Shown piece after piece: positions 482 through 22,178 of a stretch of DNA of 24,643 bases. The position numbers and the translations under genes were made by a program. Numbering within the stretch: the stretch's first letter is position 1; the number at the start of each line of letters is the position of its first letter. The stretch is from an uncultured Syntrophomonadaceae bacterium (GTDB taxonomy: Bacteria > Bacillota > Dethiobacteria > DTU022): assembly GCA_964596845.1 (NCBI GenBank), contig CAZQVX010000003.1, forward strand, positions 1 through 24,643, read 5' to 3'. The notes below the pieces were generated by a model. It saw only the letters and a program-made list of their open reading frames with translations, did no database searches and was not told the origin of the DNA.

Positions 482-579
482 TATCGGCAACCCTCCGCCT
501 TGTTTTTAGCCACTACCTTTTTCGATAAGAAGCCCCTTATCCCTTTTTCATAACCAGCTACAGAGAATCCTTACTACCA

Positions 580-2359: not shown

Positions 2360-2420
2360 CCTGAATCACCGCTCCAGGGGCAGGAATTAAAAAGAGGCTT
2401 GGAATGGAGCGGTTCAGGTG
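2357..2420 (-). promoter_or_regulatory. Imperfect inverted repeat pairing the activase stop region with the SD of the PLC gene
   Basis: ACCGCTCCA (2368-2376) and TGGAGCGGT (2405-2413) are perfect 9-bp complements, extendable imperfectly to 2357 and 2420. Confidence 0.45.
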
Positions 2421-3340: not shown

Positions 3341-3347
3341 TGATTTC

Positions 3348-3377
3348 ATTATAAACGTCTTTGGGCGGCCGTTGCAA
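3348..3377 (-). promoter_or_regulatory. sigma70/sigmaA promoter of the activase gene
   Basis: TTGCAA (3377-3372), 18-nt spacer, TATAAT (3353-3348); predicted +1 at about 3341-3340. Confidence 0.7.
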
Positions 3378-3579
3378 GAGCAAAAACACGCGGTGCGAGA
3401 AGTCCACCCGGCGAAGAAGTGATCCGCCCGCGGCAGGAAGCGGCCTCGCTCAACTTGAATATAATGTATGGCAGCGGCTGAGCAGCAGGTATTACGCCGG
3501 CAGTGTGACGGCTTCTGAGTAGATTTTGTTTTTCTGTTCAGCCGGCAGTATAAACATCAAAGGCGAGGGAGGAATCAGG

Positions 3580-4837: not shown

Positions 4838-6718
4838 CTAGGTCCAGATCCGGCCCGCCTCTTCGGCAAGATCCAGCCTGTTTAGCCGGTCCTTTGTGGC
4901 TACGCCTTTTTCCGGATCCATCTCCATCAGCCTGTAGAAGGACGCTTTCATCTGGTCGAATTCGATCCTGATGCCTGCCGGTTCGCCGTCCCGCGCCGGC
5001 TCGAGCATACGCGGAGTGAGGCTGTCGTCACCGGCCCTGAAGCCCAGGCGATAGTTCAGACATCTTTTCAGGTGGAAGATCCGGGCGCCCGCCTCCATGA
5101 GGGTGGCAACCGTCAGGCCGTAACCGGCCGCCGCATTGAGCAGATCCGCCATGTCCTGGATGGTCAGAGAGCGGTCGGCATACTGGCAGAGGCAGGCGCT
5201 GTTCTCGATCATTCCCAGCGCCGCTGCCAGGACCATGGTTTCGGGCTTTTTCTCATGCGTCATCGCCTCGAGGTCGAATTCAAAACCAATTTCCGGGTAG
5301 TTGCAGGCCCCTGTTTCCATGAAATGCATCGCCGTGGCTACGTGGCAGGCGCCGCGGGGGCTCACCGCATAGGCCAGGGCATGACCATGTCCGCCTCCGC
5401 GGGGATCATGCATGGGCGCCTCCAGGCCCTTGCTCTGGGCGGTGTAGGCCAGGGCATCATTTCCAATTTCCGCCGCCGCCCGTGCGCTGCCCCGGGCCAG
5501 GAGCCTGCCCAGAGACGTTTTCTTTGCGGCAATAGCAGGAAGCACTGTATTTACTACTGTTTCCATATCACCCCACCGGAGGGCGGTCCCGCCCGTTTGC
5601 CCGGGAGTGAGGTGGCCTTTTTCCCAGGCCTCCATAGCCCAGGCGATGGTGGCGCCGGCAGTGATTGAATCCATCCCCAGGTCGTTGCAGAGATAATTTG
5701 CCTTGCAGGCGGCCGCCAGATCGGCGGAGTCCAGCATGGTGCCGAAAGCGGCAATCGTTTCATACTCCGGACCGGGGCTTTCAGGGATAGCGTAGGGGCC
5801 TTCATCGACTCGAACCATCCGCTTGCAGCCCACGGCGCAATAGGCGCATGTCCGCCTCCCCGTGAGGTATTTTTCACTAAGGGTGCTGCCCGTCAGGGCC
5901 TCGCCCATCTCCTCATTGAAATTGGACTGCCAGTTGCGGATGGGTACATCTCCCGTGTAGATATGCCCCTCCAGGTTTCCCGCCGAGCCGAAGTCGCGCA
6001 GCACCATGGAGATCATTGCTTCTCTGATGCCGGGCGTAACTTTTTTGGCCAGCTCCTTGAGCCCCGTTTCATCGGCAAAACGGGGCTCAACATGTTTTTT
6101 GCCGGTAATGACGATTGCTTTAATCATTTTTGATCCCATTACCGCACCCAGGCCGCACCGGCCAAAAGCGTGGTGGGCATCATTGAGGATGCAGGCATAG
6201 AGGACCGCATTTTCCCCGGCGGGCCCGATGGTGAGGGCGGTGGATTTTTGACCGTAGCGCTCTTTCAATCTCCGCGAGGTTTCGTAGTTGCCTTTACCCC
6301 AGAGATCCCGGGCGTCTTCGATGGTTACGCTTCCCTCATCGATGAGCAGGCAGGATGGGGCGCCGGCTCTCCCGGTGATGAGCAGCCCGTCGTATCCCTG
6401 ATGTTTCAGGGCCGGTGCAAAATAACCCCCGCAGGAGGAGTCGGCAAAGGTCCCGGTGAGCGGGGAGCGGGCCGCGGCGCAGGTCCGGCTTGCGCCGGAC
6501 ATCCGCAAGCCCGCCAGCGGCCCATTTATGAACATAAGCAGACTTTCCGGTGAGAAAGGGTCAAGGGAGAAGTCCGCCCGGTCGCTGTAGATCTTTGCGG
6601 CCAGGCCGCTGCCCCCGATAAAACGGGTGTAGACCTCCCCGGGGCAGTACAGCGCCCCCACAGAGGCGGCTGTAAGATCGATCACCGCGATGACGCCGGT
6701 ATTGCCCTTCACATCCAA
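4838..6718 (-). CDS. Aldehyde:ferredoxin oxidoreductase (tungstopterin AOR family)
   Basis: RSPLTG..SSCGG, GRCGLGAVMGSKMIKAI, CAYCAVGC (Fe-S ligands), PEYET, DLGMDSI, EAPMHDPR and a C-terminal Cys in ACLCQY. Confidence 0.93.
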   Translation of the reverse strand: MDVKGNTGVIAVIDLTAASVGALYCPGEVYTRFIGGSGLAAKIYSDRADFSLDPFSPESLLMFINGPLAGLRMSGASRTCAAARSPLTGTFADSSCGGYFAPALKHQGYDGLLITGRAGAPSCLLIDEGSVTIEDARDLWGKGNYETSRRLKERYGQKSTALTIGPAGENAVLYACILNDAHHAFGRCGLGAVMGSKMIKAIVITGKKHVEPRFADETGLKELAKKVTPGIREAMISMVLRDFGSAGNLEGHIYTGDVPIRNWQSNFNEEMGEALTGSTLSEKYLTGRRTCAYCAVGCKRMVRVDEGPYAIPESPGPEYETIAAFGTMLDSADLAAACKANYLCNDLGMDSITAGATIAWAMEAWEKGHLTPGQTGGTALRWGDMETVVNTVLPAIAAKKTSLGRLLARGSARAAAEIGNDALAYTAQSKGLEAPMHDPRGGGHGHALAYAVSPRGACHVATAMHFMETGACNYPEIGFEFDLEAMTHEKKPETMVLAAALGMIENSACLCQYADRSLTIQDMADLLNAAAGYGLTVATLMEAGARIFHLKRCLNYRLGFRAGDDSLTPRMLEPARDGEPAGIRIEFDQMKASFYRLMEMDPEKGVATKDRLNRLDLAEEAGRIWT

Positions 6719-6724
6719 CCCCCC

Positions 6725-7165
6725 TTATTTTTTGCGGATGATTTTATCTTCGTAACCCATCTCCGCGAGTACCACGGGGAAAAGCTGAAAAGCCGGCCGC
6801 ACCACCGGCAGCAGCTTCAGCATAGCCGTAACCTTGCCGCCCTGTTTGATGATCCCCTTGGTAATGCCGGCCATGGGGTTTTCCAGGCCATGCCAGAAGC
6901 TGTGGGAGTGATCGGCCGGCTGTTTTGACCAGACGTCCTCTTTCAGCTCACAGGGCCCCAGGTAGTAACTGCCGTAGTAACCTTCCTTTGCGGGCGGGTT
7001 TTTCAGGTCAATGGTGATCTCAGTGTCGGGATTGGTGTAGATGAACTTGATGATAATCCCCGCCCTGGACATCTTGGTCCCAATTTTTTCATCCTGAAGT
7101 ACCCGATCCATAAAATAACCGTAGATCTCATACAGTTGATCAGCATCCCGATAATACTTGCTCAT
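6725..7165 (-). CDS. Stand-alone SCP2 (sterol carrier protein 2)-like lipid-binding protein
   Basis: 146 aa; pattern IKFIYTNPDTEITID..ADHSHSFWHGLENPMAGITKGIIKQGGKVTAMLKLLP resembles the SCP2 C-terminus (FWxGxxNPxxAxxxGxIKxxG); SD GGAGG. Confidence 0.72.
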   Translation of the reverse strand: MSKYYRDADQLYEIYGYFMDRVLQDEKIGTKMSRAGIIIKFIYTNPDTEITIDLKNPPAKEGYYGSYYLGPCELKEDVWSKQPADHSHSFWHGLENPMAGITKGIIKQGGKVTAMLKLLPVVRPAFQLFPVVLAEMGYEDKIIRKK

Positions 7166-7196: not shown

Positions 7197-8354
7197 CTAG
7201 CGCTGGCTGAACCTACGCTCGAAGATCATCCCGGCAATACCGATTTTGAGCATTTCGATAGTGCCTCCGGCGACACCCCAGGCCTTGGCGTCGCGATACA
7301 TCCTCTCCAGGGGCAATTCGGTGCTGTATCCATAGCCGCCAAAGATCTGCATGGCCAGGTTGGTCACCTCCACAACCATTTCGTTGGCAAAGGCTTTGGC
7401 CATGGATGCTTCGTAAATGGAGGGGAGCCCTCTGCCGGCGCTGTTGATAGCCCGGTAGACCAGGAGCCTGGCTGCATCAAGTTTTGTGGCCATGTCCACG
7501 ATCATGAACTGCACCGCCTGGCGGTTGCAGATCTCCTTGCCGAATGTTTTCCGTTCCCTGGCATAGGAGATGGACTCCTCCAGGGCCCCGCCGGCCACGC
7601 CGAGGCACATGGCTGCGTTGCCGCATCTCTCGATATCAAAGGTGAGCATCAAGTTGGCGAAGCTTCCTGCGGGGAGCACCAGGTTGCTTTTCGGTACCCT
7701 GACGTCATCGAAAAAAAGATCACAGGAGGGCATTCCGCGCAGTCCCATGAAAGTCTCCTGTTTGCCGAAGGTGAAACCGGGCATCCCCTTTTCTACGATG
7801 AGGGCGCCGATACCCCTGTAACCCTGGATATTGTCAAACCGGGTGTAGACCATGTAGTGGCTGGCGTGGCCGGCGCCGGTGATAAAGGCCTTGCTCCCAT
7901 TGAGGATGTAGCAGTCGCCGTCCTCGAGGGCGTTTGTGCTCAGTGCGGTGAGATCTGAGCCCGCATCCTGTTCAGTCATGCACACAGAGACACTGTGCTT
8001 GCCGCTGCAGACGCCGGGCAGGATCCCTTTCTTTTGTTCCTCCGTGCCGAAAAAACCGATCACCCTGGCCGGGCCGACGTTTGATTCGAAGATCGGCGCG
8101 GCGATGAGGGGGCTGAATTTCGCCAGCTCTTCAATGCAGAGGATGGCGTTGATCGAGGGCTGATCGCCACCGCCGTACTCAGAGGGCAGGGTCATCCCCA
8201 GCAGCCCCAGTTCGGCATAAAGATCGAGCAGGTGAAAGGGGAACTCGCCCGTTTGATCCACTTGCCTGGCCAGCTCTTTAAAGTTTTCCTTCCGGCCCAT
8301 GGACTTGATCGTCTCCAGCAGCATCTTTTGCTCTTCATTCAGGTTAAAATCCAT
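7197..8354 (-). CDS. Acyl-CoA dehydrogenase (IVD/LCAD-type catalytic Glu position)
   Basis: GLLGMTLPSEYGGG, CMTEQDAGSD, YILNGSKAFIT, FDDVRVP, AMQIFGGYGY..LERMYRDAK; SD AGGAGG. Confidence 0.95.
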   Translation of the reverse strand: MDFNLNEEQKMLLETIKSMGRKENFKELARQVDQTGEFPFHLLDLYAELGLLGMTLPSEYGGGDQPSINAILCIEELAKFSPLIAAPIFESNVGPARVIGFFGTEEQKKGILPGVCSGKHSVSVCMTEQDAGSDLTALSTNALEDGDCYILNGSKAFITGAGHASHYMVYTRFDNIQGYRGIGALIVEKGMPGFTFGKQETFMGLRGMPSCDLFFDDVRVPKSNLVLPAGSFANLMLTFDIERCGNAAMCLGVAGGALEESISYARERKTFGKEICNRQAVQFMIVDMATKLDAARLLVYRAINSAGRGLPSIYEASMAKAFANEMVVEVTNLAMQIFGGYGYSTELPLERMYRDAKAWGVAGGTIEMLKIGIAGMIFERRFSQR

Positions 8355-8387: not shown

Positions 8388-9755
8388 CTAAATCAGTGAG
8401 GCAAGTTCCCTGATGCTATCCAGGGTTTCCATTTTCATAACCAGATCGATAACCCGGTCCACCTTTGCCGGATCTCTTTCCCCCGAAAAATGCTGAACCT
8501 TTGCGGCCAGATCACCTTCTGTCATGGGGTCGCGAGGGTCGCCCTTGGGGATTTCCACTTCACTTTCCAGAGTTTTGCCGTTCGTCATTTTCACTTCCAC
8601 CCGGCTGGCGGTGAACTCGGGGTAACGGGCCGAGATCTCGTCGTCGGGAACAACATTGACCCGGCTGGTGAACTCCATCAATTTCCCGTCCTTCAGCCTC
8701 TGTTCAGTGAGCTGTGCCGGCCCCAGTTCTCCGTCAAAGATGCAGGCGGCGACAACGTAGGGGAGGGAAAACTGGGCGGAAACGAAGCTGCCTGCCTCAG
8801 GAACCCCCTTGCCCACGGCGATGAGAGCCATGTTGTAGGTGTAGACATTGACGGATGCTATCTCCGCAGGGGTAAGACTATACTTCCTGACGAGCTCCAA
8901 TGCGGCCTGCGCCGCTCCATGGGTATGCCGGCAGGCGGTATATGGCTTGAAGTAAATATCGTTGATGGCATAATGATGACCAAGCTCATCGGTAAGTTTC
9001 TTCAGGTTGGAGCCCATAGGGTTGGTGATTTGGATAAAACCGCCCCCCAGTGCCGAACCCTCGATGATCTCCGGACACCCCGTGATTCCTTTACCGGCCA
9101 GGCCTGCAGCCATAATCCCCGCGCCGGCGGCCTGGCCGCCCTGGACTATCTTGATCGTGTAGCCGCCCATGAGCTGTTCGGCCATGGAGAGGGGCAGCAA
9201 ATAGCCGGCATTGCCCAGGGCATTAACCGTGGTATCGGCATCATAGCCGTACAACCTGGCCGCAGCGGCGGCGGCGCCGAAAGCGCCGCAGGTGCCTGTA
9301 GGCAAAAAGCCGGAGACGGTGTGGCCTGGATGGACGGCTGCGGCAACCCTGCCGGCCACCTCGTAGCCGGCGATGATCGCCTCGAGCAGCCTGTCTCCTC
9401 CGGCATTCTCGGCTTCGGCAATAGCGAGCGCCGCAGGAATTACCGCCACTCCGGGATGGTTACCGCCGAAGCGGTAGCCGTCCTGGGCCTCGATCGCCTC
9501 TCCGGTGGTTCCGTTTAAGAATGCGGCCTGCTGCAGCCCTGTTTTGAAACCGCACCCCAGGACGGTGGCCGTCTCCGTTCCGCCCAGGGGGCGGATATAC
9601 TCCACGATCACCCGGGTAGCCTCCAGCTCCAGCGAGCCGTAGACATTGGCCACGTAATCGAGAAGGCATAACCTGGCTTTTCGGGCAACTTCCGCGGGAA
9701 CCGATTTAAGGGACAGGCCGGTGGTAAATTCAGCAAGCTCTCTCGTTGGGCCCAT
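8388..9755 (-). CDS. MmgE/PrpD family protein
   Basis: ARLCLLDYV, AAFLNG, NHPG (H101), IIAGYEVAGRV, KPYTACRHTH, AQFSLPYVVA, IPKGDPRDPM; SD AGGAGGAG. Confidence 0.9.
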   Translation of the reverse strand: MGPTRELAEFTTGLSLKSVPAEVARKARLCLLDYVANVYGSLELEATRVIVEYIRPLGGTETATVLGCGFKTGLQQAAFLNGTTGEAIEAQDGYRFGGNHPGVAVIPAALAIAEAENAGGDRLLEAIIAGYEVAGRVAAAVHPGHTVSGFLPTGTCGAFGAAAAAARLYGYDADTTVNALGNAGYLLPLSMAEQLMGGYTIKIVQGGQAAGAGIMAAGLAGKGITGCPEIIEGSALGGGFIQITNPMGSNLKKLTDELGHHYAINDIYFKPYTACRHTHGAAQAALELVRKYSLTPAEIASVNVYTYNMALIAVGKGVPEAGSFVSAQFSLPYVVAACIFDGELGPAQLTEQRLKDGKLMEFTSRVNVVPDDEISARYPEFTASRVEVKMTNGKTLESEVEIPKGDPRDPMTEGDLAAKVQHFSGERDPAKVDRVIDLVMKMETLDSIRELASLI

Positions 9756-9776
9756 CACAATCTCCTCCTTCTCTTT

Positions 9777-10577
9777 TTACACGTAGCCGCGTCTTTCGTA
9801 GATCTGGATCATTCTGTTGGGATCGAGCACTTCGCGGATAAGATGCAGCTCTTCCGCGGTGGGTGGCTCCGTTTCATGGACATCAACGGCCACCTTCAGA
9901 TCCCAGGGGGTCAGGCTGATCACTTCATCGACAGTGGTGTCGGGGTGGTAGGTGGCCAGATAGGCCTCCCTGGTGTGGGGATCAAAGCGCATCACTGCCT
10001 TGTTGGTGATGATCACCTCCGGGCCTGACCCGGCGGGAAACCCCCATTTCTCACGGCTGCCCGGACCGTCCAGGTAGCCCGGTGTGGTGATGAAATCGAC
10101 CCTTTCGGCCAGGGTCCTGGAGTTGTGGACGGCAATGATGAGGGTGCGTTTGGCCAGGGCGCCGATAGGGTTGGCGCCTCCTGAGCCCGGTAAACGGCTT
10201 CTGGGGGCGCCGTAATCTCCGATCACCGTGGTATTGATGTTGCCGAATTTGTCAACCTGGCTTCCCGCCAGAAAACCTACATCCACCCAACCTCCCTGGA
10301 GAAACATGCCCATCACTTCTATGAGCCCCCCGATCATGGCTGCTCCCGGGTTAAGACAGGGGTCGCCCACGGAGAGTGCCGGCCTGAGGGGGCGGGCATC
10401 GTAAACCCCCGATTCCTGCATCAGCCTGGCGTTCGGGGCATGAGTGTGGACGGCGATATTGGCGGCCATGGAAGGAAATCCCGTACCCACGACGACAATA
10501 TCGCCATCACGTATCTCTCTGGCGCCACAGCAGGCCATCAGCTCCGGTTTGATGTAATCCATTGGATCCATGCTCAT
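9777..10577 (-). CDS. Family I CoA-transferase subunit B (glutaconate CoA-transferase GctB-like)
   Basis: VVVGTGFP, QESG with catalytic Glu (10413-10415), GFLAGSQVDKFGNINTT, RLPGSGGA, VDFITTPG. Start may be 10586 or 10577. Confidence 0.9.
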   Translation of the reverse strand: MSMDPMDYIKPELMACCGAREIRDGDIVVVGTGFPSMAANIAVHTHAPNARLMQESGVYDARPLRPALSVGDPCLNPGAAMIGGLIEVMGMFLQGGWVDVGFLAGSQVDKFGNINTTVIGDYGAPRSRLPGSGGANPIGALAKRTLIIAVHNSRTLAERVDFITTPGYLDGPGSREKWGFPAGSGPEVIITNKAVMRFDPHTREAYLATYHPDTTVDEVISLTPWDLKVAVDVHETEPPTAEELHLIREVLDPNRMIQIYERRGYV

Positions 10578-10592
10578 CAGCGTCACCCCCGG

Positions 10593-11528
10593 TTAGTAGG
10601 AATAGGATACCGGGTAACTGTAATCGAACCCGGCTTTCAGGGAAGAGAATTTTTCATAGCCATACTTCTTGATGAAATGCTCCGTGTACTGGGCGCGGTT
10701 CTTGACCCCGTAAACCCACTCGTCAAGAAAGTTTTCAAAGCCTTCTACCGTGTTAGAGGCCTGCTGGTAGTCATAACCGTAGCTCAGATCGACATCATAG
10801 AAACCGGGGGCGTACCCCGGGTGCGCGCCAAATGGCTCCTCTGTCACCGCCACAACCTTGAATCCGGGGACGATGGTCCGCGAGGGGTCTTTCCCGATCA
10901 CTTCCCGGCTGACGATGCGCTCGCAGCTGACGATGACCTTCCCTGAGGCATTGGCTCCCCACCTGCAGTCGCCGCCGATGCCCCACATTTGTGCATTTCC
11001 CTCTTCGTCGGCCTGCTGGACATGGATAATGGCTACATCCGGCTTAAGGGAAGGTACGAGCATGGTAGGGTTGCCGTCGAAGGGCGAATCGATGATTTTA
11101 AACTTGCCCTCGCCCATGAAAGAGCTCACTTTCATCAGGTCGGTGCCTGCCATATCCTTAACAGGGACAAAGGGCATCCCTGTCGCCCCCGCCATGAGCA
11201 TCAGGGGCAGCGACAGGTTGGTGTATTCCTCGATTTCAATTTTGTGGGGTATGCCTTTTTCGATGGATCTGCGGTAACAGCGGGCCAGCCCGTAAAGGCC
11301 CAGGGAAATAAATGTGGAAATAAAACGTTTCACGCATCCTGCGCCGATGAGCATGTCAAAATCATCGGCGGCATTACTGCGGGTGATGGTCAGATCGCTT
11401 TTTTTCCGGCGAATGATCTCGTGGATGGCGGCGAAGGGCGGTCTGGCAATATAACCGCCGATAAAGAGAAAATCGCCGTCATGGACAAACTTTTCTACAG
11501 CCTCAGCGGTGGTCATCACCTTGCTCAT
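10593..11528 (-). CDS. Family I CoA-transferase subunit A (GctA-like)
   Basis: MSKVMTTAEAVEKFVHDGDFLFIGG..PFAAIHEIIR, KPDVAIIHVQQADEEGN, EPFGAHP; SD GGAGGG before ATG 11528. Confidence 0.9.
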   Translation of the reverse strand: MSKVMTTAEAVEKFVHDGDFLFIGGYIARPPFAAIHEIIRRKKSDLTITRSNAADDFDMLIGAGCVKRFISTFISLGLYGLARCYRRSIEKGIPHKIEIEEYTNLSLPLMLMAGATGMPFVPVKDMAGTDLMKVSSFMGEGKFKIIDSPFDGNPTMLVPSLKPDVAIIHVQQADEEGNAQMWGIGGDCRWGANASGKVIVSCERIVSREVIGKDPSRTIVPGFKVVAVTEEPFGAHPGYAPGFYDVDLSYGYDYQQASNTVEGFENFLDEWVYGVKNRAQYTEHFIKKYGYEKFSSLKAGFDYSYPVSYSY

Positions 11529-11594
11529 CTGCATCCCTCCCGGGGTAATCAATCCATCCTTCCGGTTCGGATTGATCCGTTCTTGTTCATCCTT

Positions 11595-13985
11595 TCAGCC
11601 GCCCTGCTCAAACTCAGTGCGGCTGATGATCTCGTCCTGGGCAATTTCGCTCAGATCGATAAACTCCGCTGAATAACCGCTGACCCTGACAAAGAGGTCG
11701 CGGTATTTCTCGGGCTCTTTCTTTGCATTTTTGAGGGTTTCCGTATCGACCATGTTGAACTGGACCTGCATCCCGCCGCTGTCCATGTAAGCGCGGATCA
11801 GGTGGGCCAGGTGGGCGCTTTTCATCTTTTTTCCCTGGAAGCGCATGTTCAGGTTGGCCCCGTTGTAGAGCCGTTCTAGGGGCAGTTTCACTGCTGAATT
11901 CATCACTGCCGTGGGTCCGCTTACGGCATTCCCCGTTGTAGGCGTGATCCCGTTGCCCAGCACATCACCGGCGGACCTGCCCTCCGGGGTGGCTCCGGTA
12001 AAAGCGCCGAAAGAGATGTGAAAACCTACAGAGAAGATGCCCGGCCAAAGGAATCCGCCGCGGAAATTGTGGTGGGCGCCGATGACATCGCAGTAATGTT
12101 CAGCCACCTTCTTCGCCAGCGCATCCACGTCGTCGCAGTCATTGCCGTACTTGGGCACCCTGTTCAGCATGTACTGGCGCCACTTTTCCGAATCGTACCA
12201 GTCGTCTGTAAGCATTGCCGTCAGTTCGGACATTGTCAGGACCTTGTCTTCGAACACAGCCTTCTTAACGGCATAAAGGCTGTCGACGACATTGGCGAAG
12301 CCCATGAGCTGGACGCCGGTGGAGTTGTATACTGCTCCGCCCCGGGTCAGGTCAAGGCCTTTCTCGAGGCAGCCCGCGATGACCGCCGAGGCGAAGGGAG
12401 AGGGGACGTTGTCGGCGATGGCTTCATCGAGGATGCACATGCCCCTGGCTATCTGGCCTGCAAAATGGCTCAACTGCCGGTCATAGGCGTCCCAGAGATT
12501 TTCGAAAGAGGTGAATTGGGCCGGATCGCCCGTTTGTAAGCCCGACTGATAACCGAAGATCTGGTCAATACCATTGCTCAGCGCGAACTCGACGCACTTC
12601 AGGCCGTTGAACTGCACGGCAAAGGTGGAGCCGAAAGTCTTGCCCTGGGCATTCGGCTCAAGGCATCCCACAATGCCGTAATTGCGTGCATCTTCCAGGG
12701 TATGACCGCTGTGAAGCAGTGTTTTCACGATGGCTTCGTCGTTGAAAAAGTGCAGCAGCACCCCGTCCCGGGCGTAGTCGACAGCTTTCATCAGAAAGTC
12801 TTCGGGGGATTTGGGGGAGAGGCGCACCCCGAAGTTGGGCTGCACGGTGCGCACATCGCTGAAGGCGTCGAGACCGATATAGCTCAGCTCATTGGTGGCG
12901 TCATTCCCCTCGGTGTTGACGCCTCCAACAATGGTGTTCTGGGTCGTCTTGCCCTGGGTCCCCTCGCCGCCCGGGGTGAAAGCCTCTTCCAGCAGGTTCC
13001 AGATTTCATTGGTCTTGATGTAGAGCAGCGCAAGCAGTTCCCGGGCCTCCGCAGGGGTGAGGCGCCCGGCCTCTTTATCCCGGCGGTAGTAGGGATAGAG
13101 GATCTGGTCGATCCGGCCAAGGGATATGGAATTGCCCCCTGATTCGATCTGTGAGGTGAGATGGATAAAGTAGACGCTCTGGACCGCTTCGTGGAAGCTC
13201 TCTGCGGGATGTTCAGGCACGCGGGTGCAGACCCGGGCGATCTTCATCAGTTCCGCAGCGCGCCTTTTATCTTTTTCCTGATGGGCCATCTCGCGGGCCA
13301 GGATGCTGTAGCGGCGGGCAAAGGAGATCACTGCGCTGCAGGATCGGATCACCGCCTCGTAGAACATCTTTTTGCCGCTGTCTGCCGGGGAATTGCTGCA
13401 CCCGGCGAGCCTTTCACGCGCTTCACCAATGATGCCGCCTAGTCCTGCGGAGAGCACCCTGTCATGATCGATGGTGAAATGGCCGATCCCATAGGTAATC
13501 TCCAGCATCATGGTGAAAACATACTTATCCATATCCGCCAGCAGATCGGGCGGCATGCGGGATTCCATCACATCCTCTACGGTTTTCCCCTGCCAGAAGG
13601 GCAGGATCTCGCTCTTAAGCTCCGCTATCTCAGCGGGGCTGATCAGGGCCTTCTGCACCGCCCGGATCCCCAGGGATTCAAGGTCCCCCTCTATCCACCT
13701 CGATTTATTTTCCGGAAAGAGGGGCGCCCCCTTTAGCTTGCTTGTACGGCACCCTACAATAAGCTCGTCATCTCTGATGATGGGGGTGATGTTGTTTAAA
13801 ATGTGCTCAAAAGCCAGGCTCATCCGCTCCAGGGGATCCCGGGCCCAGTTTTCTTTCATCGATTGGGTCAGATATCTGGCTCTTTCTATGCATACTTCCA
13901 TGGGAGCGTCAATAATTTTCCATCTGAGTCGACCGACTCTGGTGTTTGGATAACCGGCGTCGTGAAAAGCGGCCTGGTGTTCCAT
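11595..13985 (-). CDS. Glycyl radical enzyme, eliminase (dehydratase/lyase)-like clade, substrate unknown
   Basis: Single-Cys loop YGIVGCLEP (C442, E444; ORF-track numbering), glycyl loop LFVRVSGYS (G771), DELIVG, PKYGND, GATPEGR. TGATG overlap with the upstream SDR puts the start at 13985. Confidence 0.96.
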   Translation of the reverse strand: MEHQAAFHDAGYPNTRVGRLRWKIIDAPMEVCIERARYLTQSMKENWARDPLERMSLAFEHILNNITPIIRDDELIVGCRTSKLKGAPLFPENKSRWIEGDLESLGIRAVQKALISPAEIAELKSEILPFWQGKTVEDVMESRMPPDLLADMDKYVFTMMLEITYGIGHFTIDHDRVLSAGLGGIIGEARERLAGCSNSPADSGKKMFYEAVIRSCSAVISFARRYSILAREMAHQEKDKRRAAELMKIARVCTRVPEHPAESFHEAVQSVYFIHLTSQIESGGNSISLGRIDQILYPYYRRDKEAGRLTPAEARELLALLYIKTNEIWNLLEEAFTPGGEGTQGKTTQNTIVGGVNTEGNDATNELSYIGLDAFSDVRTVQPNFGVRLSPKSPEDFLMKAVDYARDGVLLHFFNDEAIVKTLLHSGHTLEDARNYGIVGCLEPNAQGKTFGSTFAVQFNGLKCVEFALSNGIDQIFGYQSGLQTGDPAQFTSFENLWDAYDRQLSHFAGQIARGMCILDEAIADNVPSPFASAVIAGCLEKGLDLTRGGAVYNSTGVQLMGFANVVDSLYAVKKAVFEDKVLTMSELTAMLTDDWYDSEKWRQYMLNRVPKYGNDCDDVDALAKKVAEHYCDVIGAHHNFRGGFLWPGIFSVGFHISFGAFTGATPEGRSAGDVLGNGITPTTGNAVSGPTAVMNSAVKLPLERLYNGANLNMRFQGKKMKSAHLAHLIRAYMDSGGMQVQFNMVDTETLKNAKKEPEKYRDLFVRVSGYSAEFIDLSEIAQDEIISRTEFEQGG

Positions 13986-14830
13986 CAAACAGTCCCTCGC
14001 TTTACCTTTATATCCATGTGGCTCACAAGGATGGCATCACGCAAGCCCCCCGGGATGAACCGGTTCAGCCAGAGCAGAAAACTGCTCTGGAAATCGATCT
14101 GGTTAAAAAAGTGCACTTTATCAGACATGATCACCTGGAAGATCCTTTCCGCGGCGGCTTCCGGGTCAGGCGCCTTTTTAATGAGCACTTTGTCCCGCTC
14201 GATGAACCTGCCGGCGCGCTCGCGATAGGGGGAGCCCTCCGGCGGGAGGACATGAATCTTGGCGGCAAAACTGGTGGATACCTGAGCCGGCTCGATGACC
14301 GCCACATCTATCCCGAAATGCTCCACCTCGTATTTGATGGACTGCATCAGCCCCGTGACGGCGAATTTGCTTGCGGTATAGATGGATTCGAAGGGGAAAG
14401 GGACGCGGCCGACAAGCGAAGACATGGCGATCATTTTGCCCCGGCGCTGCTCACGCATGGATGGAAGGAAGGCCTGGAATGTGGCCGCCGCACCGATGAC
14501 GTTGATCTCCAGGCACCGGAGCGCTTTTTCCAGGTCGGCCTCCTCGAAGGGGCTGAAAAAACCGATCCCTACGTTAGAGAGCACAGTATCCACATGCCCG
14601 TACTTTTCAAGGACCCTGTCACGAAAATTCAGGATCCTTCGGCGATCGGTAATGTCGAAAGCTTCAAGCAGGTGCTCACCGCCAATTGCGGACAGCTCTG
14701 CTTCAAGTGTGGATAGTTTTTCGGAATCCAGATCAAATCCCGCAACGCTGCACCCGGCCCGGGCGAGTTTTCGGGCTGTAACCCGGCCCATCCCATCGGC
14801 CAACCCCGTAATCACCACAACCTGCCCCAC
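13985..14830 (-). CDS. Classical short-chain dehydrogenase/reductase
   Basis: TGLADGMG (TGxxxGxG), acidic GFDLD after beta2, MSS, YTASK (YxxxK), VAVIEP; SD AGGAGG before GTG. Confidence 0.92.
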   Translation of the reverse strand: MGQVVVITGLADGMGRVTARKLARAGCSVAGFDLDSEKLSTLEAELSAIGGEHLLEAFDITDRRRILNFRDRVLEKYGHVDTVLSNVGIGFFSPFEEADLEKALRCLEINVIGAAATFQAFLPSMREQRRGKMIAMSSLVGRVPFPFESIYTASKFAVTGLMQSIKYEVEHFGIDVAVIEPAQVSTSFAAKIHVLPPEGSPYRERAGRFIERDKVLIKKAPDPEAAAERIFQVIMSDKVHFFNQIDFQSSFLLWLNRFIPGGLRDAILVSHMDIKVKRGTV

Positions 14831-14852: not shown

Positions 14853-15845
14853 CTACCGTTTTGTCCTGTGAAACCGGTACCATTCCGCCAGTTGCTTCAT
14901 GGACGCCATAAAGTCCGGATAGAGCAGGTTGTAACCGGCGGCTTTAAGCTTGCTGTTATCCACCACATAGTCATCACAGAGGTATCTCACCGCATCGGAT
15001 TCAAGGTCCGGGATTTTATTTTTTCCCGCCGCGGAAGCCCCATCGATGGAGGCGACAATTTTAACGAGCCAGAGAGGGAGGTGCAGGGTGGGGCGTTTGC
15101 TGCCGAAGGCCTCTGCGGCGGCGATAAGCGCCGCCTTAACTTCCGGATGCGTATCTTCGGCGAGGTTATAGGCCTGGCCTACCGCCGGGTCCAGGCGGGA
15201 GAGATACTCTGCTGCCGCAGCTACATCCTCAACCCGGATGTTCGAAAGCAGCTGTGTGCCCTTACCGGGAATGCCGGTAATGCTCGTGGGCCGGGAGAAA
15301 GCTTTGCCCGCCCCGTCATTGCAGCCGGGCCCGTAGACGGTGCAGGGGCGCAGAATCACTGCCGGCAGGCCTTCTTTGATCCGCTTCCAGACGATATTCT
15401 CCCCATCGCGCTTGCTCCTGCCGTAGGCATCCACAGGCTCGCGCGGTGAATCCTCGGTGAAGGGGAGCCCTTTGTAGCGGCCATATACACTCGTGGAAGC
15501 GACATGGACAAAGCGTTTTACGCCGTGTTCCAGGGCCAGCGCTGTGATCCTTTCCACGCCTTCCACGTTGGTGGGGTAGAGCCCCGCGTAGGGTGTGGAG
15601 AAGTTGCAGATTGCTCCGAGGTGAAAGACGCGTTCAACGTGATCCCGAAAGAGGGGGGGAAGGGTCTCTGGTTTTGTCAAATCGGCAGGCATGTAATCCA
15701 CGCCAAGGTTATCAAAAAATGAGAGATCTTCGCGGGGCCTCGAGCTAGCGCGAACCCGCACCCCCTTCTTTACCAGGTGCTCCACCAGGTGGCGCCCCAT
15801 GAAACCCGCCGCGCCGGTGACCAGGGCGAGGCCTTCAAATTCCAC
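14853..15845 (-). CDS. Extended SDR / NAD-dependent epimerase-dehydratase (3beta-HSD/HpnA-like)
   Basis: TGAAGFMG, HLGA, NVEG, FVHVASTSVYG, YGRSK, ILRPCTVYGPG. GTG 15845 has SD AGAGAGGG; alternative start 15866. Confidence 0.9.
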   Translation of the reverse strand: MEFEGLALVTGAAGFMGRHLVEHLVKKGVRVRASSRPREDLSFFDNLGVDYMPADLTKPETLPPLFRDHVERVFHLGAICNFSTPYAGLYPTNVEGVERITALALEHGVKRFVHVASTSVYGRYKGLPFTEDSPREPVDAYGRSKRDGENIVWKRIKEGLPAVILRPCTVYGPGCNDGAGKAFSRPTSITGIPGKGTQLLSNIRVEDVAAAAEYLSRLDPAVGQAYNLAEDTHPEVKAALIAAAEAFGSKRPTLHLPLWLVKIVASIDGASAAGKNKIPDLESDAVRYLCDDYVVDNSKLKAAGYNLLYPDFMASMKQLAEWYRFHRTKR

Positions 15846-15897
15846 AGCTATTCCCTCTCTTTCCACAGCGAAGGTCGGAGGACGGCGTTATTTGCAT

Positions 15898-16431
15898 TTA
15901 TCCCTCGTTGTTATTCTTGATTTCTTCGGCCGCATGACGCAGCCAGCCGATGTAGGCTTCGTTCAACGTTACTCCCAGCTGGGCCAACAAGTTAACATAA
16001 ACACCTTGCCTGCTCCACCGGTCCCGGTTTGCCTTTCTCCGGGCCAGCTGTTTTTCATGCAGGGTAATCTGATCTTCGATGATTTGCAGGGCTCTTACGT
16101 CATCGCTAAAACCGAAAAAAGCGAACTTCAGCAGAAAGGAATCCCTCAGGATCATCGGCCGGATGGGATCTTGGGCCACCCAGCGGGAGAATTCTTCCCG
16201 CCCCCTTTCCTCAATGGTATAGAGTTTCTTTTGCGGACCGCCTTTTTGGGAGGGAGACAGTTCTTTCATGCGGATAAAACCTTCTTCTTCCAAGGCCTTC
16301 AGGTTGGGGTAGATCTGCCCAAAGTTGATTGTCCACATATGGCCGAAGTTGTTTTCAAGATGTTCCTTGATGCGATAGCCATGCATGTCGGAGTAATGAA
16401 GCAGCCCCAGTATTGCATATTTTATAGACAT
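15898..16431 (-). CDS. PadR family transcriptional regulator
   Basis: ILGLL..MHGYRIK..WTINFGQIYPNLKALEEEGFI..KKLYTIEERGREEF plus a helical C-terminal domain; SD GAAGGGGG. Confidence 0.93.
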   Translation of the reverse strand: MSIKYAILGLLHYSDMHGYRIKEHLENNFGHMWTINFGQIYPNLKALEEEGFIRMKELSPSQKGGPQKKLYTIEERGREEFSRWVAQDPIRPMILRDSFLLKFAFFGFSDDVRALQIIEDQITLHEKQLARRKANRDRWSRQGVYVNLLAQLGVTLNEAYIGWLRHAAEEIKNNNEG

Positions 16432-16626: not shown

Positions 16627-17646
16627 ATGTCTGTAGTTAAGGTGTTGTTTTGGGGCCTCGGGGCCATGGGCAGCGGGATGGCGAAAATGCTGTTGTCCAA
16701 GGAAAACCTGCGCATCGTTGCGGTTATAGACCGGCGCCCGGAAAAAGCAGGCCGGGATGTCGGAGAATTGATCGGTTCTGACCCTCTGGGGGTAAAAGTA
16801 ACCGCCGATCCGGAGGAAGCTTTCAGCTGCAGGCCTGATCTGGCGCTGCTAGCAACTGATTCTTTCGTCAAGGATGTATTTCCGCAAATAAAATATGCTC
16901 TCAGGAAAAATGCTGATGTGATCACCATTGCTGAAGAGATGGCTTATCCCTGGTCGGCCTCGGAGGAGCTCGCGGGTGAGATTGACCGCATCGCTCGCAA
17001 ACAGGGAAATACCGTTCTGGGCACAGGGATCAATCCCGGTTTTATCCTCGACACTCTGATCATCGCTCTTACAGGTATCTGCCGTAAGGTGAGCCACATT
17101 CATGGCAAAAGGGTGAACAATCTTGCGCCTTTCGGGCCGACGGTGATGCAGATGCAGGGGGTGGGCGTTACCCCCGATGAGTTTGCCGAAGGGTTGACTT
17201 CCGGCGAGATCGTGGGCCATGTGGGATTCAAGCAGTCCGCTATGCTCATCGGCCGGGCTCTCGGCTGGGAAATCGAAGACGTGGTCGAGAAGAGAGAACC
17301 GATTATTTCTAAGGTTGAGCGGAAAACAGAGTATGTGCATATAGCCCCGGGAGATGTGGCCGGGTGCCGTCATACTGCCAGGGTTTACTGCGGGGGTAAA
17401 GAGGTCCTCTTCCTGGAGCATCCCCAGCAGGTCAGCCCGGAAGCAGAAGATGTCAGGACAGGAGACTACATCACGATTGACGGGGATCCGCCGCTCAAAC
17501 TGGCCATCGAACCGGAGATTCCCGGCGGCGTCGGCACCGTGGCTATCGCCGTAAATATGATTCCCCTGGTTGTAAACGGCCCCCGCGGGCTGGTGACGAT
17601 GGCGGATCTGCCTGTCCCGCGCAGACTGCCCGACTTGATCAGGTAG
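16627..17646 (+). CDS. ord: 2,4-diaminopentanoate dehydrogenase
   Basis: [53 protein letters not shown]; first gene of the ornithine cluster. Confidence 0.93.
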
Positions 17647-17710
17647 GGCGGATTTTATTCGCCCGCAGGATCGGGCTCCGTTGTTCGCCCTATAACCGCC
17701 CTGTTTTTCT
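17645..17710 (+). terminator. Possible intrinsic terminator or attenuator structure after ord
   Basis: AGGGCGG (17645-17651) pairs with CCGCCCT (17696-17702), followed by GTTTTTCT; shorter competing hairpins lie inside. Confidence 0.3.
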
Positions 17711-17777
17711 ACATAGAGAGAAAATATGAAAGTCCTCCCACAGTAATGAGCCATAATATAGTTGTGAGGTGATCGCT

Positions 17778-18086
17778 ATGGCCCCAAAATGCCTTGAGGG
17801 CGCCTGGGTAGAGATCCATTACATTGTTTTGGACCCCGCATCACGCCCCGGGGATCTTCCCCCCGAAACCCGCAAGGTCCCCCTGGAATGCCGGATGAAC
17901 GGCTGGGCGCTCAGCGCAAAAGAGATCGGCCGGGAGGTGGAGATCCGGACCCCGGCGGGGCGCATCGTCAAAGGCGCACTTACCCGGATCAATCCCGGTT
18001 ATGAGCACACTTTCGGACTCGCGGTGCCGGAGCTTTCCGGTATCGGCGCAGAGCTGCGCAGCTTGCTGAAGGAAGGGGAGCGCTGA
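17778..18086 (+). CDS. ortA: 2-amino-4-oxopentanoate thiolase alpha subunit
   Basis: WVEIHYIVL..R...P.ETRKVPLE..NG..GRIVKG.L..INPGYEHTFG; SD GAGGTGA; TGATG coupling to ortB. Confidence 0.92.
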   Translation: MAPKCLEGAWVEIHYIVLDPASRPGDLPPETRKVPLECRMNGWALSAKEIGREVEIRTPAGRIVKGALTRINPGYEHTFGLAVPELSGIGAELRSLLKEGER

Positions 18087-19516
18087 TGTCGCGAGATCTT
18101 TCCTATGAAGCAGTGATGGGGCGCCGCGGCGAGATCATGAAGCGGGCTCTGGGGATCGAGTACAGTGAATTCATTCGGAGCAAAATCGCCTTCGATTATG
18201 AAGAGATGATGTGCAAGGCCGGCTATTCGCTTGACGAGGTCAGGCGGATCCAGGGCGAGACAGGCGTCGGCGGCACCCCTCTGCTGGAACTAAAAAACAT
18301 TACCCGCCTCGTCCGCCGGAGTTCACCCAAAGGTTACGGCGCGAGAATCCTGATTAAGGATGAGGCGGCCAACCCCTCGGGCAGCTTCAAGGACAGAAGA
18401 GCCAGTGTATCGGTTTACCATGCTGCTAAGCTGGGTTATCCGGGCGTGTTGGCCGCTACCAGCGGCAATTACGGCGCTGCGGTGGCCTCTCAGGCAGCCA
18501 TGCGCAACCTGCGCTGCATCATCGTCCAGGAGGTTTTCGACTCTCGCGAGGTAGGGCAGCCCGAAATCATTGAAAAGTCCCGAAAGTGTGAGGCCTACGG
18601 GGCCGAAGTGGTCCGATTGAGCGTAGGCCCTGAACTGTTCTACCTGGCCCTGATCTTGCTTGAAGAGACGGGGTTTTTTAATGCTTCCCTATATAGCCCC
18701 TTCGGTATCTCCGGGGTGGAGACCCTGGGAGCCGAGCTGGTGGAACAGGTTCGGGAGAGCTACGGCAAAGACCCGGCCTATATCGTGGTCACCCATGCCG
18801 GGGGCGGCAACGTTACCGGGACGGCCCGGGGCGTACATCGGGCGGGGGCTGCAGATTCGCGGATTATCGGGGCCAGTGTGGACCTATCGGGCCTGCATAT
18901 GGCTTCAGACACCGATTTTAACAGAAAGTCATTTACTACCGGCCATACCGGGTTCGGGGTTCCTTTTGCCACATGGCCCGACCGTACCGATGTGCCGAAG
19001 AACGCCGCCCGGCCGCTGCGCTATCTGGACCGCTACGTTACCGTGACCCAGGGTGAGGTCTTTTACGTCACCGAGGCGCTGGCTCAGGTGGAGGGGCTGG
19101 AGAGGGGGCCAGCGGGGAACACTTCTCTGGCGGCGGCCATCCCGCTGGCCCGGGAACTGCCCGAAGACGAGATTGTAGTTGTCCAGGAGACAGAGTACAC
19201 CGGGGCGGGCAAACATCCCCAGGCTCAGCTGGATTTCGCCAGGCATAACGGGATTGTAGTGAAGCGGGGTGATCCGCAAGAGAATGTGCCCGGCAAGGCC
19301 ATCGTCATCCCCGAGCATTTCTCGCAGCTGGGCATGGTCGAGATGGATCTGGGGCGGATGCGCCGCTCCTATATTAGAAACGCGGTGGGAAGAAGCGGAG
19401 TCAAGGTGATCACCGGGGAAGAGCTGCGTTTTCTGGCCGCGGAGACGAAAGAGACGGAAGCCTTCGTCGCCGCGGTATTAAAAGAGATGGGGGAGGTGGC
19501 AATCGATGGGCGTTGA
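18086..19516 (+). CDS. ortB: 2-amino-4-oxopentanoate thiolase beta subunit (PLP)
   Basis: KDEAANPSGSFKDRRA (PLP Lys), ATSGNYGAAVASQAA, THAGGGNVTG, ERGPAGNTSLAAA, ETEYTGAGKH. Confidence 0.95.
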   Translation: MSRDLSYEAVMGRRGEIMKRALGIEYSEFIRSKIAFDYEEMMCKAGYSLDEVRRIQGETGVGGTPLLELKNITRLVRRSSPKGYGARILIKDEAANPSGSFKDRRASVSVYHAAKLGYPGVLAATSGNYGAAVASQAAMRNLRCIIVQEVFDSREVGQPEIIEKSRKCEAYGAEVVRLSVGPELFYLALILLEETGFFNASLYSPFGISGVETLGAELVEQVRESYGKDPAYIVVTHAGGGNVTGTARGVHRAGAADSRIIGASVDLSGLHMASDTDFNRKSFTTGHTGFGVPFATWPDRTDVPKNAARPLRYLDRYVTVTQGEVFYVTEALAQVEGLERGPAGNTSLAAAIPLARELPEDEIVVVQETEYTGAGKHPQAQLDFARHNGIVVKRGDPQENVPGKAIVIPEHFSQLGMVEMDLGRMRRSYIRNAVGRSGVKVITGEELRFLAAETKETEAFVAAVLKEMGEVAIDGR

Positions 19517-19898
19517 CGGAGGGACGGGGTACGCGTCTAGATCTGATTTTGAAGAGAGGCGCAAGCATCTGGCCGGGCTGACCGATGATCAGCTCAAGGA
19601 AAGGTTCTGGAAACTGGCCCGGGAGATTATGGAGCCGTTGGCGGAACTGGCTTTTAGCCATACTTCTCCCGCTATCGAGCGCTCTGTCGTTTTGCGGATG
19701 GGTTTTTCCAGCCTGGAAGCTCAAGCCATCGTCTACGCCGCTGAAAAAAGAGGCTGGCTCGGCAGGGGCGTAGGCCGGTTTATTCTTGAATACGCTGCGG
19801 CTAAAGGGATCGACTACCTGGAGGCCGGGCGGGGGCTGGCCGCCGGTGAAGGCTGGGCTGAACTCGCTGAAATGCTGGGGGGTGGGGAGGAGTGGTGA
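19506..19898 (+). CDS. oraS: D-ornithine 4,5-aminomutase small subunit
   Basis: FEERRKHLAGLTDDQLKERFWKL..HTSPAIERSVVLRMGFSSLEA..GWLGRG. Confidence 0.93.
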   Translation: MGVDGGTGYASRSDFEERRKHLAGLTDDQLKERFWKLAREIMEPLAELAFSHTSPAIERSVVLRMGFSSLEAQAIVYAAEKRGWLGRGVGRFILEYAAAKGIDYLEAGRGLAAGEGWAELAEMLGGGEEW

Positions 19899-22120: not shown

Positions 22121-22157
22121 TTAGTTACTCTGGTGCCTGGCACCAAAGTAACTAACT
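22119..22157. repeat. 19-bp inverted repeat with GGTGCC-T-GGCACC core
   Basis: AGTTAGTTACTCTGGTGCC / T / GGCACCAAAGTAACTAACT: one mismatch, followed by TTT. Confidence 0.8.
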
Positions 22158-22178
22158 TTTAGAGAAGAGAGTAGCTGT

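Follow-up and report, generated by a model that had tools for sequence, protein, structure and literature searches.

Glycyl radical enzymes (GREs) give anaerobes access to chemistry that otherwise needs oxygen. Newly assigned GRE families have each opened a new pathway, as for the conversion of choline to trimethylamine (TMA), hydroxyproline, sulfonates and anhydro-sugars. Here we describe an oxygen-sensitive enzyme of this kind, a GRE encoded at positions 11595–13985 on the minus strand of a 24,643-nucleotide stretch of contig CAZQVX010000003.1 (assembly GCA_964596845.1) from an uncultured Syntrophomonadaceae bacterium; this whole stretch is referred to as the window.

The enzymes closest to it carry a Cys-x-Glu (CxE) motif at the catalytic cysteine. 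A review of the superfamily from June 2026 lists as CxE enzymes glycerol dehydratase (GD), propanediol dehydratase (PD), HpfG, HypD, HpyG, HpzG, CutC, IslA/IseG and HpsG, and the motif is also carried by the isomerases HplG, YbiW and PflD (PMC13450708). The same review gives the roles of C433, E435 and H164 in GD and stresses that entire GRE clades are still unassigned (PMC13450708). None of the CxE enzymes that it names corresponds to the family of the window GRE (PMC13450708), and our literature searches turned up no paper on this family or its gene cluster. A paper on a limonene GRE was set aside, since it concerns a fumarate-adding enzyme unrelated to the family. Uncharacterised GRE clades are expected, so any surprise is tempered.

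What can be said about this enzyme? Our favoured reading, which we hold with somewhat more belief than doubt, is that a GRE of the 1,2-eliminase type turns a hydroxylated substrate of hydrophobic or amphipathic nature into a carbonyl compound, which would then be oxidised and activated with CoA. The substrate is probably neither glycerol nor propanediol and would be a poorly soluble, amphipathic hydroxylated compound.

Active site of the enzyme

The comparison with known GREs draws on the following features of the gene:

11595–13985, minus strand: GRE of 796 aa, recognised by its Pfam domains and the TIGR01774 subfamily model
13479–13481, minus strand: H169 in GIGH (166–169), the equivalent of GD H164 by alignment and invariance
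13128–13139, minus strand: GGNS (283–286) within ESGGNS (281–286), with N285 in place of H281 of GD and PD and with S286 equivalent to S282, by alignment
12936–12974, minus strand: family-specific and family-invariant inserted loop PGGEGTQGKTTQN (338–350) in place of FGGYPMYQN of GD
12654–12668, minus strand: Cys loop GCLEP (440–444) with C441 and E443 of the CxE motif, aligned with C433 and E435 of GD and family-invariant
12609–12644, minus strand: strand GKTFGSTFAVQF (448–459; GKTFGSTF, 448–455) with F455 in place of D447 of GD and PD, by alignment
12018–12041, minus strand: strand GIFSVGFH (649–656) with F651 and V653 in place of Y640 and S642 of GD, by alignment
11667–11687, minus strand: glycyl radical motif RVSGYSA (767–773) with G770, invariant in the family

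The open reading frame (ORF) at 11595–13988 on the minus strand is free of internal stops, and the ATG at 13985 yields the protein of 796 residues. Pfam recognises the PFL-like domain (PF02901, E 3.9e-201) and the Gly_radical domain (PF01228, E 4e-26); judged by its sequence, the gene encodes an intact GRE of the superfamily's PFL-like branch, whose marks are a ten-stranded PFL-like barrel with the catalytic Cys on a loop at its centre and a C-terminal glycine radical domain with RVxGY. A preliminary description of this DNA had quoted a set of motif strings, all of which are present in the translation, and a Gly-rich segment, AFTPGGEGTQGKTTQN, which spans residues 335–350. Its residue numbers are one too high, because it counted from a TTG at 13988, whereas the gene end that it gave, 13985, is that of the ATG.

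Among solved structures, those closest to the GRE are GD (585 bits), PD of R. inulinivorans (5i2a, 562 bits) and GRM3-PDH (9rco, 516 bits); YbiW/PflD reach 417–453, HplG 393, BSS 279, MASS 274, HPAD 209 and PFL 121 bits. The eliminase type is favoured because the best matches are the diol dehydratases and other eliminases, above BSS, HPAD and PFL. A named function was assigned only above the curated equivalog cut-off of NCBIfam, and the GRE stays below every such cut-off tested: HpfG (551 bits against 1000), HypD (544/1100), PflD-type (526/1109), HpsG (503/1000), CutC (502/1050), IAD (404/1100), HPAD (301/1150) and PFL (148/994). The sole NCBIfam model that it passes is the subfamily model TIGR01774, with 707.5 bits against a cut-off of 678.2.

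The single Cys and the distance to the PFL cut-off bear out the early exclusion of a true PFL. The same description had used the CxE motif as an argument against decarboxylases, and this does not hold, as HPAD has Cys503 and Glu505 and IAD an essential Glu502; a decarboxylase is disfavoured because its scores are low, CxE alone not being sufficient. Isomerases are likewise compatible with the motif, as HplG, YbiW and PflD carry it. In the GRE the motif reads C441-L-E443, aligned with C433-V-E435 of GD and invariant in the family. The enzyme would thereby belong to the CxE class, that is, to the 1,2-eliminase or isomerase type, and would not form a new category.

How far does the likeness to the diol dehydratases reach into the active site? 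Residue correspondences were taken from a phmmer (HMMER) alignment of the GRE to GD (DhaB1) of Clostridium butyricum (PDB 1r8w; E 1.8e-174, 38% identity). Four residues of GD are kept, with H164, S282, C433 and E435 corresponding to H169, S286, C441 and E443, and four are changed: H281 to N285, D447 to F455, Y640 to F651 and S642 to V653. The GD loop FGGY--PMYQN becomes GGEGTQGKTTQN, with an insertion of two residues. For D447, H281, Y640 and S642 of GD, roles in the active site are assumed.

All eight correspondences given in the preliminary description are reproduced by this alignment, as is the replacement of the FGGYPMY loop. It is also correct that PD has Val at the position of S642 (GLYPVS in 5i2a). 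Val is, however, the commonest residue at position 653 among 149 representatives of the nearest other GRE clusters (55 of them), which served for comparison here and below, and hence it is not diagnostic of the family.

Two broader statements of the preliminary description need to be divided. It had the dehydratase core kept, which is true for the equivalents of H164, S282, the Cys and the Glu, but not for H281 and D447, both of which are retained by GD, PD and GRM3-PDH, the three diol dehydratases of solved structure (SSGHS, GWHD). Propanediol, the substrate of PD and GRM3-PDH, has no hydroxyl at C3. As both residues are kept in these two enzymes, their loss changes the core shared by the diol dehydratases and reaches beyond the pocket for the C3 hydroxyl. 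It had further described the pocket as more hydrophobic. F455, F651 and V653 agree with this, but the aromatic loop residue (Y339 in GD, presumably F344 in PD) gives way to a longer, invariant, polar and charged inserted loop of consensus PGGEGTxGKTTQN, with E341 at the aromatic position and T343, K346, T347 and T348 nearby. We would rather call the pocket amphipathic and the catalytic core partly retained.

Residues of the equivalent loop in HypD (S334, D339 and F340) touch the substrate and are required for activity. The inserted loop of the window GRE may form a site for an anion or a polar group. It also fits the Walker-A-like pattern GxxxxGK[ST], which was dropped as a sign of nucleotide or phosphate binding because 3% of shuffles of the GRE protein match as well; what we use of the loop is its invariance and its polarity.

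An AlphaFold2 model of the GRE, built from a 36-sequence family alignment (pTM 0.81), has a TM-score of about 0.85 to GD, PD and CutC over the full length. The GRE thus shares with GD, PD and GRM3-PDH the predicted fold, the Gly motif, the single Cys, the CxE Glu, the equivalents of H164 and S282 and, with PD, the Val at S642. Could it simply be an orthologue, an ordinary B12-independent glycerol or 1,2-propanediol dehydratase? That GD and PD are the closest solved structures and that the TIGR01774 model is passed would agree with this. Yet the identity to GD and PD is only 36–38%, and H281, D447 and the loop aromatic are replaced, besides Y640 by Phe, with replacements that are invariant in the family. 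From the active-site set of GD, PD and GRM3-PDH (H164, H281, S282, E435, D447 and the aromatic of GG[YF]) the GRE retains only H164, S282 and E435. The genomic context is wholly different as well: no dhaT/dha, pdu or microcompartment shell genes occur in the window or in those related loci that were gone through one gene at a time. We give such an orthologue next to no chance.

The family and its gene cluster

Relatives of the GRE are many in a large protein database, with 793–796 residues, 69–83% identity and generic names at most; over the whole family, identity to the window GRE ranges from 64 to 83%. A scan of one genome per species found a confirmed relative in 189 species genomes, and 80 loci of these were inspected, all of them from metagenome-assembled genomes (MAGs). 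They include Syntrophomonadaceae (the closest, 82–83%), Spirochaetota/Leptospirales, Smithella and other Syntrophales, Desulfobacterales, Thermodesulfobacteriota, Dehalococcoidia, Geothermincolia/Anoxymicrobiaceae and SAR324. In a library clustered at 50% identity the family is a single representative (65% identity, 1187 bits), and the next cluster lies at 44% identity and 769 bits. Discrete by these measures and widespread, the family appears to be uncharacterised. Its nearest non-family representative (P0122, 44% identity) has Gly for the catalytic Cys (IAGGVEL) and RFGGYPER at the radical motif, and may itself be a non-canonical or non-catalytic GRE relative.

Invariance was judged in an alignment of 36 members that are 68–83% identical to the window GRE. 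H169, G283-G284-N285-S286, P338-G-G-E-G-T-x-G-K-T-T-Q-N350, G440-C441-L442-E443, S453-T454-F455-A-V-Q-F459, F651-S652-V653 and the Gly motif are invariant. The Cys, the CxE Glu and the His are general GRE features, because they are present in 147, 120 and 121 of the 149 other representatives, respectively. F455 and N285 lie outside the seven commonest residues at their positions, and where the family has its insertion at 343–345, about 140 of the 149 show a gap. The loop motif, searched for in the same loop of these 149 proteins, occurs in none. Position 341, Glu in the family, is Tyr or Phe in 67 of them.

The GRE gene lies within a set of genes on the same strand. Gene order was compared in 87 related loci, and the counts given here and below come from the 34 non-redundant loci with enough flanking sequence:

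16491–16463, minus strand: promoter-like site TTGACA-17-TATAGT directly upstream of padR
15898–16431, minus strand: PadR-family regulator by Pfam (30 of 34 loci)
14853–15866, minus strand: extended short-chain dehydrogenase/reductase (SDR) of 337 aa, of the 3-beta-HSD / NAD-dependent epimerase / thioester-reductase type (33 of 34)
13985–14830, minus strand: classical SDR of 281 aa, Pfam adh_short (33 of 34)
10593–11552, minus strand: CoA-transferase alpha subunit, GctA-like, by Pfam CoA_trans and PDB 1poi (E 7.6e-53; 29 of 34)
9777–10586, minus strand: CoA-transferase beta subunit with an ESG triplet in MQESGVY
8388–9758, minus strand: MmgE/PrpD-family protein (29 of 34)
7197–8354, minus strand: acyl-CoA dehydrogenase (ACAD) of the short-chain butyryl/acryloyl-CoA type (33 of 34)
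6725–7165, minus strand: 146-aa protein with a predicted SCP2 fold, by AlphaFold2 and Foldseek (33 of 34)
4838–6718, minus strand: tungsten-type aldehyde:ferredoxin oxidoreductase (AFOR) by Pfam AFOR_N and AFOR_C
2414–3349, minus strand: radical SAM GRE-activating enzyme (TIGR02494, 306 bits against a cut-off of 174)

The genes from padR to the AFOR gene apparently form an operon. The stop codon of the classical SDR gene overlaps the start of the GRE gene at 13983–13988 on the minus strand (gtTTGATGgaa, with TGATG), and this overlap suggests that the two are translationally coupled. The ESG triplet of the beta subunit is presumably the site of the catalytic Glu of family I CoA-transferases.

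Gene order is strikingly conserved across the 87 loci. A CoA-activating enzyme of one kind or the other is found in 33 of the 34, and an AFOR or an NAD-dependent aldehyde dehydrogenase (NAD-ALDH) in 22; an NAD-ALDH gene adjoins that of the GRE in 10 loci and an iron-dependent alcohol dehydrogenase (Fe-ADH) gene in five. Some Smithella and other loci have an AMP-ligase in place of the CoA-transferase and PrpD-like genes. This ligase resembles long-chain-fatty-acid and steroid-24-oyl-CoA ligases, and the same loci gain a major facilitator superfamily (MFS) transporter (bile-salt / lactate, monocarboxylate-like) and a lactonase of the SGL/arylesterase type.

The family is strongly conserved, the GRE being 64–83% and its partners 51–91% identical over at least five phyla, and the cluster moves as a whole. 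The likeness of the cluster proteins between phyla suggests that all of these genes have spread together by horizontal transfer and are strongly constrained.

Two further genes accompany the cluster in some loci. A 473-aa gene stands between the CoA-transferase subunit genes in loci L010, L016, L017, L032, L033 and L042 (e.g. L017:13397–14818), and its sole family match is a weak hit to the uncharacterised NCBIfam family Npun_F2552; by the look of its sequence it may be DUF362-like. In three loci the AFOR gene is followed by one for a 641-aa fusion of an old-yellow-enzyme and a pyridine-nucleotide-disulfide oxidoreductase (L087:15014–16939 and two others); being of the 2,4-dienoyl-CoA reductase or enoate reductase type, it hints at an alpha,beta-unsaturated intermediate.

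The 146-aa protein has no match in Pfam, the SCP2 model included, and none by sequence in the PDB; none of its 411 homologues has a name or a Pfam hit. Modelled with AlphaFold2 from 42 sequences, the protein reached a pLDDT of 95.3, and a Foldseek search of the PDB with this model returned SCP2 proteins or domains at ranks 1–10 (E about 2e-6, probability 1.0), with the SCP2-like domains of alkylsulfatases and UbiJ lower in the list. On the strength of this model we are confident in assigning the protein the fold of sterol carrier protein 2 (SCP2). The likeness to the known domains (human SCP2, the SCP-2L domain of MFE-2 in 1ikt, the C-terminal domain of alkylsulfatases and UbiJ) is one of fold, with TM-scores of 0.65–0.78 normalised to the target; in sequence the protein is only 10–20% identical to them, 20–30 residues longer, and forms a family of its own. 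SCP2 domains have an alpha/beta fold with a hydrophobic tunnel for ligands, among which are fatty acids, acyl-CoAs, sterols, alkyl chains and isoprenoid quinones. A partner of this fold is a separate line of evidence for a pathway that acts on something hydrophobic.

The activase gene of the window stands 8 kb from the GRE gene, beyond a divergent arginine deiminase gene. Its product is 35–40% identical to activases encoded within four related clusters, and may possibly serve the window GRE.

Which acid does the cluster handle downstream? In the alignment of the PrpD-like protein to the IDS epimerase, H99 is kept as H101, the Lys residues K198 and K266 are kept, and D88 is conservatively changed to E90, whereas H85, H150 and Y145 are replaced by E87, L152 and T147; the two lost His residues bind carboxylate. 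The protein is probably of the enolate-forming isomerase or epimerase type, and its substrate would be an enolisable carboxylic acid less polar than a plain dicarboxylate.

A CoA-transferase, an MmgE/PrpD isomerase and an ACAD make up the methylsuccinate module of Pseudomonas and Cupriavidus, in which the PrpD-family member epimerises the free acid via an enolate; the known MmgE/PrpD substrates all hold a substituted succinate backbone (PMC12290011). The same three enzyme types adjoin in the window, and the catalytic His and two enolate-stabilising Lys of PrpD are kept. The window differs from that module in that its CoA-transferase is GctAB-like and in that some related genomes swap the module for an AMP-ligase, without a PrpD-like gene.

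The benzylsuccinate (bbs) pathway likewise has a two-subunit CoA-transferase, an ACAD and two SDRs. The GRE could accordingly be imagined as a new fumarate-adding enzyme, akin to X-succinate synthases, for a hydrophobic compound, with bbs-like beta-oxidation of the substituted succinate downstream. The genes of the cluster resemble the bbs pathway in this respect; an SCP2-fold protein and a PadR regulator would suit a hydrocarbon-like substrate, and the succinate backbone of MmgE/PrpD substrates would fit as well (PMC12290011). The enzyme itself speaks otherwise. BSS and MASS reach 279 and 274 bits, far under the eliminases, and CxE and the GD-type His are kept. The loci whose genes were listed contain no small beta or gamma subunit genes, aldehyde- or alcohol-oxidising enzymes recur in the cluster, and the PrpD-like protein is without the two carboxylate-binding His residues. 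A fumarate-adding function thus strikes us as highly improbable.

Proposed pathway and alternatives

From these observations we infer the type of reaction, the order of steps and the class of substrate. The activase would put a radical on G770, from where it would move to C441. The C441 thiyl radical would take a hydrogen from the carbinol carbon of the substrate, and E443 would deprotonate the carbinol hydroxyl. The neighbouring group, be it water, alkoxide or amine, would depart with the assistance of H169 and S286, with H169 as the proton donor to the leaving group, and the carbonyl product radical would recover a hydrogen from C441. The hydrophobic part of the substrate would lie against F455, F651 and V653, and the loop with E341, T343, K346, T347 and T348 would provide the contacts for a polar or anionic group.

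The remaining genes could be arranged around this step. The SCP2-fold protein is probably the carrier of the greasy substrate or product, or might be an accessory subunit of the GRE. The two SDRs, with an occasional Fe-ADH, would turn hydroxyls into carbonyls or the reverse, either ahead of the GRE reaction or after it. The product, most simply an aldehyde, would be oxidised by the AFOR, or elsewhere by an NAD-ALDH; an aldehyde fits because AFOR and ALDH genes are frequent in the cluster. The resulting acid would be activated by the CoA-transferase or the AMP-ligase, with a prior epimerisation or isomerisation by the PrpD-like protein where a stereospecific transferase is used. The ACAD would then dehydrogenate the acyl-CoA for beta-oxidation, and PadR would act as a repressor that senses the compound.

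The preliminary description had proposed that the enzyme eliminates water, alcohol or amine from a substrate with a non-polar tail. For the first part, the eliminases as closest relatives and the kept CxE motif are in its favour. The non-polar tail draws its strongest support from the conserved SCP2-fold protein, to which the three hydrophobic positions add; with the polar loop, the pocket is not simply hydrophobic.

Several observations weigh against the favoured reading as a whole. Without H281 and D447, the leaving group may depart by a chemistry other than dehydration. Judged by the GctA-like transferase, the short-chain-type ACAD and the PrpD-like protein, short substituted dicarboxylates would be more fitting substrates than long lipids. 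An activase is encoded within the cluster in only four of the 34 loci, and in 12 the cluster contains neither AFOR nor ALDH. Finally, the GRE model has a pLDDT below 50 at residues 161–168, 330–348, 437–455, 652–692 and 765–781, which are the active-site segments, and is unreliable there.

The first of these points would be compatible with another kind of reaction, in which the enzyme is a lyase or isomerase with an ether oxygen or an amine as the leaving group, and not a dehydratase. This would cover elimination of an alkoxide or aryloxide, ring opening as in YbiW, PflD or HplG, and loss of ammonia from amino alcohols, sphingoid bases for example. CxE is common to isomerases and to C–N and C–S lyases, H281 and D447 of the diol-dehydratase set are lost, and the strand motif FGST is like that of many non-GD clusters. 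A fatty or aryl alcohol set free in the reaction could be a substrate for oxidation by the SDRs, Fe-ADH, AFOR and ALDH, and the SCP2-fold protein would suit a greasy substrate or product. On the other hand, no feature of the sequence identifies the leaving group, the presumed acid catalyst H169 is retained as in the dehydratases, and the PrpD-like protein and the GctA-like CoA-transferase would not be accounted for. We consider this unlikely, though worth keeping in mind.

A special case is ether cleavage, which had been named early on as a possibly new GRE reaction. YbiW and PflD already cleave the C–O ring bond of 1,5-anhydrohexitol-6-phosphate, an ether C–O beta to the carbinol radical (PMC13450708), so ether cleavage as such would not be new; expulsion of a free alcohol would be unprecedented. 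For alkylglycerols, AGMO, which depends on O2 and tetrahydrobiopterin, is the only enzyme so far known to cleave the ether (PMC3617469). The cluster might then be the first anaerobic pathway to cleave non-activated lipid ethers (alkylglycerols, archaeal or bacterial di-ethers) or lignin-type aryl ethers, a thought that we regard as a long shot. The GRE would take a hydrogen from the free carbinol in the glycerol head group and drive out the hydroxyl or alkoxy substituent next to it, with a 3-alkoxy-aldehyde and/or a fatty alcohol as the outcome. Through AFOR or ALDH, activation with CoA and the ACAD, the 3-alkoxy acid would become a vinyl-ether thioester, which would collapse on hydration and free the second alcohol, with the SCP2-fold protein shuttling the lipids.

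Returning to the favoured elimination from a hydroxylated substrate, the rebuilt active site, the protein of lipid-carrier fold and the tungsten AFOR together suggest a so far unrecognised anaerobic route for a hydrophobic hydroxylated natural compound. The cluster is carried by syntrophs and fermenters of digesters, peat, sediments and springs. If true, such a route would matter for the turnover of carbon in methanogenic systems, and it could yield a new radical biocatalyst. The conservation of the cluster, its ecology and the partner of lipid-carrier fold all recommend it as a good candidate for an anaerobic pathway that is new.

Neighbouring genes and comparison with known systems

Outside the cluster and the activase gene, the window contains:

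16627–24592, plus strand: complete oxidative ornithine fermentation cluster, with 2,4-diaminopentanoate dehydrogenase, OrtA, OrtB, OraS, OraE, a MutL-like reactivase and a racemase
3526–4791, plus strand: arginine deiminase gene, on the other side of the GRE cluster
1196–2359, minus strand: protein with a Ca2+-dependent PI-PLC-like domain (PF16670, E 2.2e-53), directly downstream of the activase and without an NCBIfam hit
668–1147, plus strand: 159-aa ORF at the left window end, without a Pfam or NCBIfam hit
188–490, minus strand: 100-aa ORF adjoining the former

The ornithine fermentation cluster and the arginine deiminase mark the host as an amino-acid fermenter. The PI-PLC-like gene was considered as a link to lipid head groups and dropped, as it is not conserved in related loci.

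The ornithine genes raise one more possibility, namely that the GRE decarboxylates a hydrophobic acid in the manner of HPAD, IAD or PAD, or that it is of the HplG type and supplies the adjacent ornithine/2-amino-4-ketopentanoate (AKP) pathway. PadR regulators commonly sense hydrophobic or phenolic ligands, which would be in keeping with such a substrate, and decarboxylases carry Cys-x-Glu too. The genes ortA and ortB are 4 kb away, and HplG makes their substrate, 2-amino-4-ketopentanoate (PMC13450708). The scores argue against this, with 404 bits against 1100 for IAD, 301 against 1150 for HPAD and 393 for the HplG structure; furthermore, CoA activation, an ACAD and aldehyde oxidation would be unexpected after a decarboxylase. 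Genes of the ornithine pathway occur in none of the 87 related loci, so that their adjacency, like that of the arginine gene, is incidental. An HplG-like function deduced from the adjacent ortAB was rejected for these reasons, the 393 bits and the 0 of 87 loci, and decarboxylase or HplG, we would lend either barely any credence.

How, then, does the GRE stand among the other enzymes of its class? With the choline TMA-lyase CutC, the isethionate/DHPS sulfo-lyases IslA, IseG and HpsG and the hydroxyproline dehydratases HypD, HpyG and HpzG it would share the CxE eliminase logic and the same specificity positions: the residue that precedes the conserved Ser, a loop near 334–340, the strand that follows the Cys loop and another strand near 640–645. 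It differs from this group in its scores, 500–550 bits against cut-offs of 1000–1100, and the substrate-binding residues of these enzymes, such as the Arg/Gln/Arg sulfonate triad or D278, S334, F340 and Y450 of HypD, were not seen in the motifs of the family. With YbiW, PflD and HplG it has the CxE motif in common, and these differ from it by their sugar-phosphate or amino-acid substrates, their other gene contexts and a weaker sequence match.

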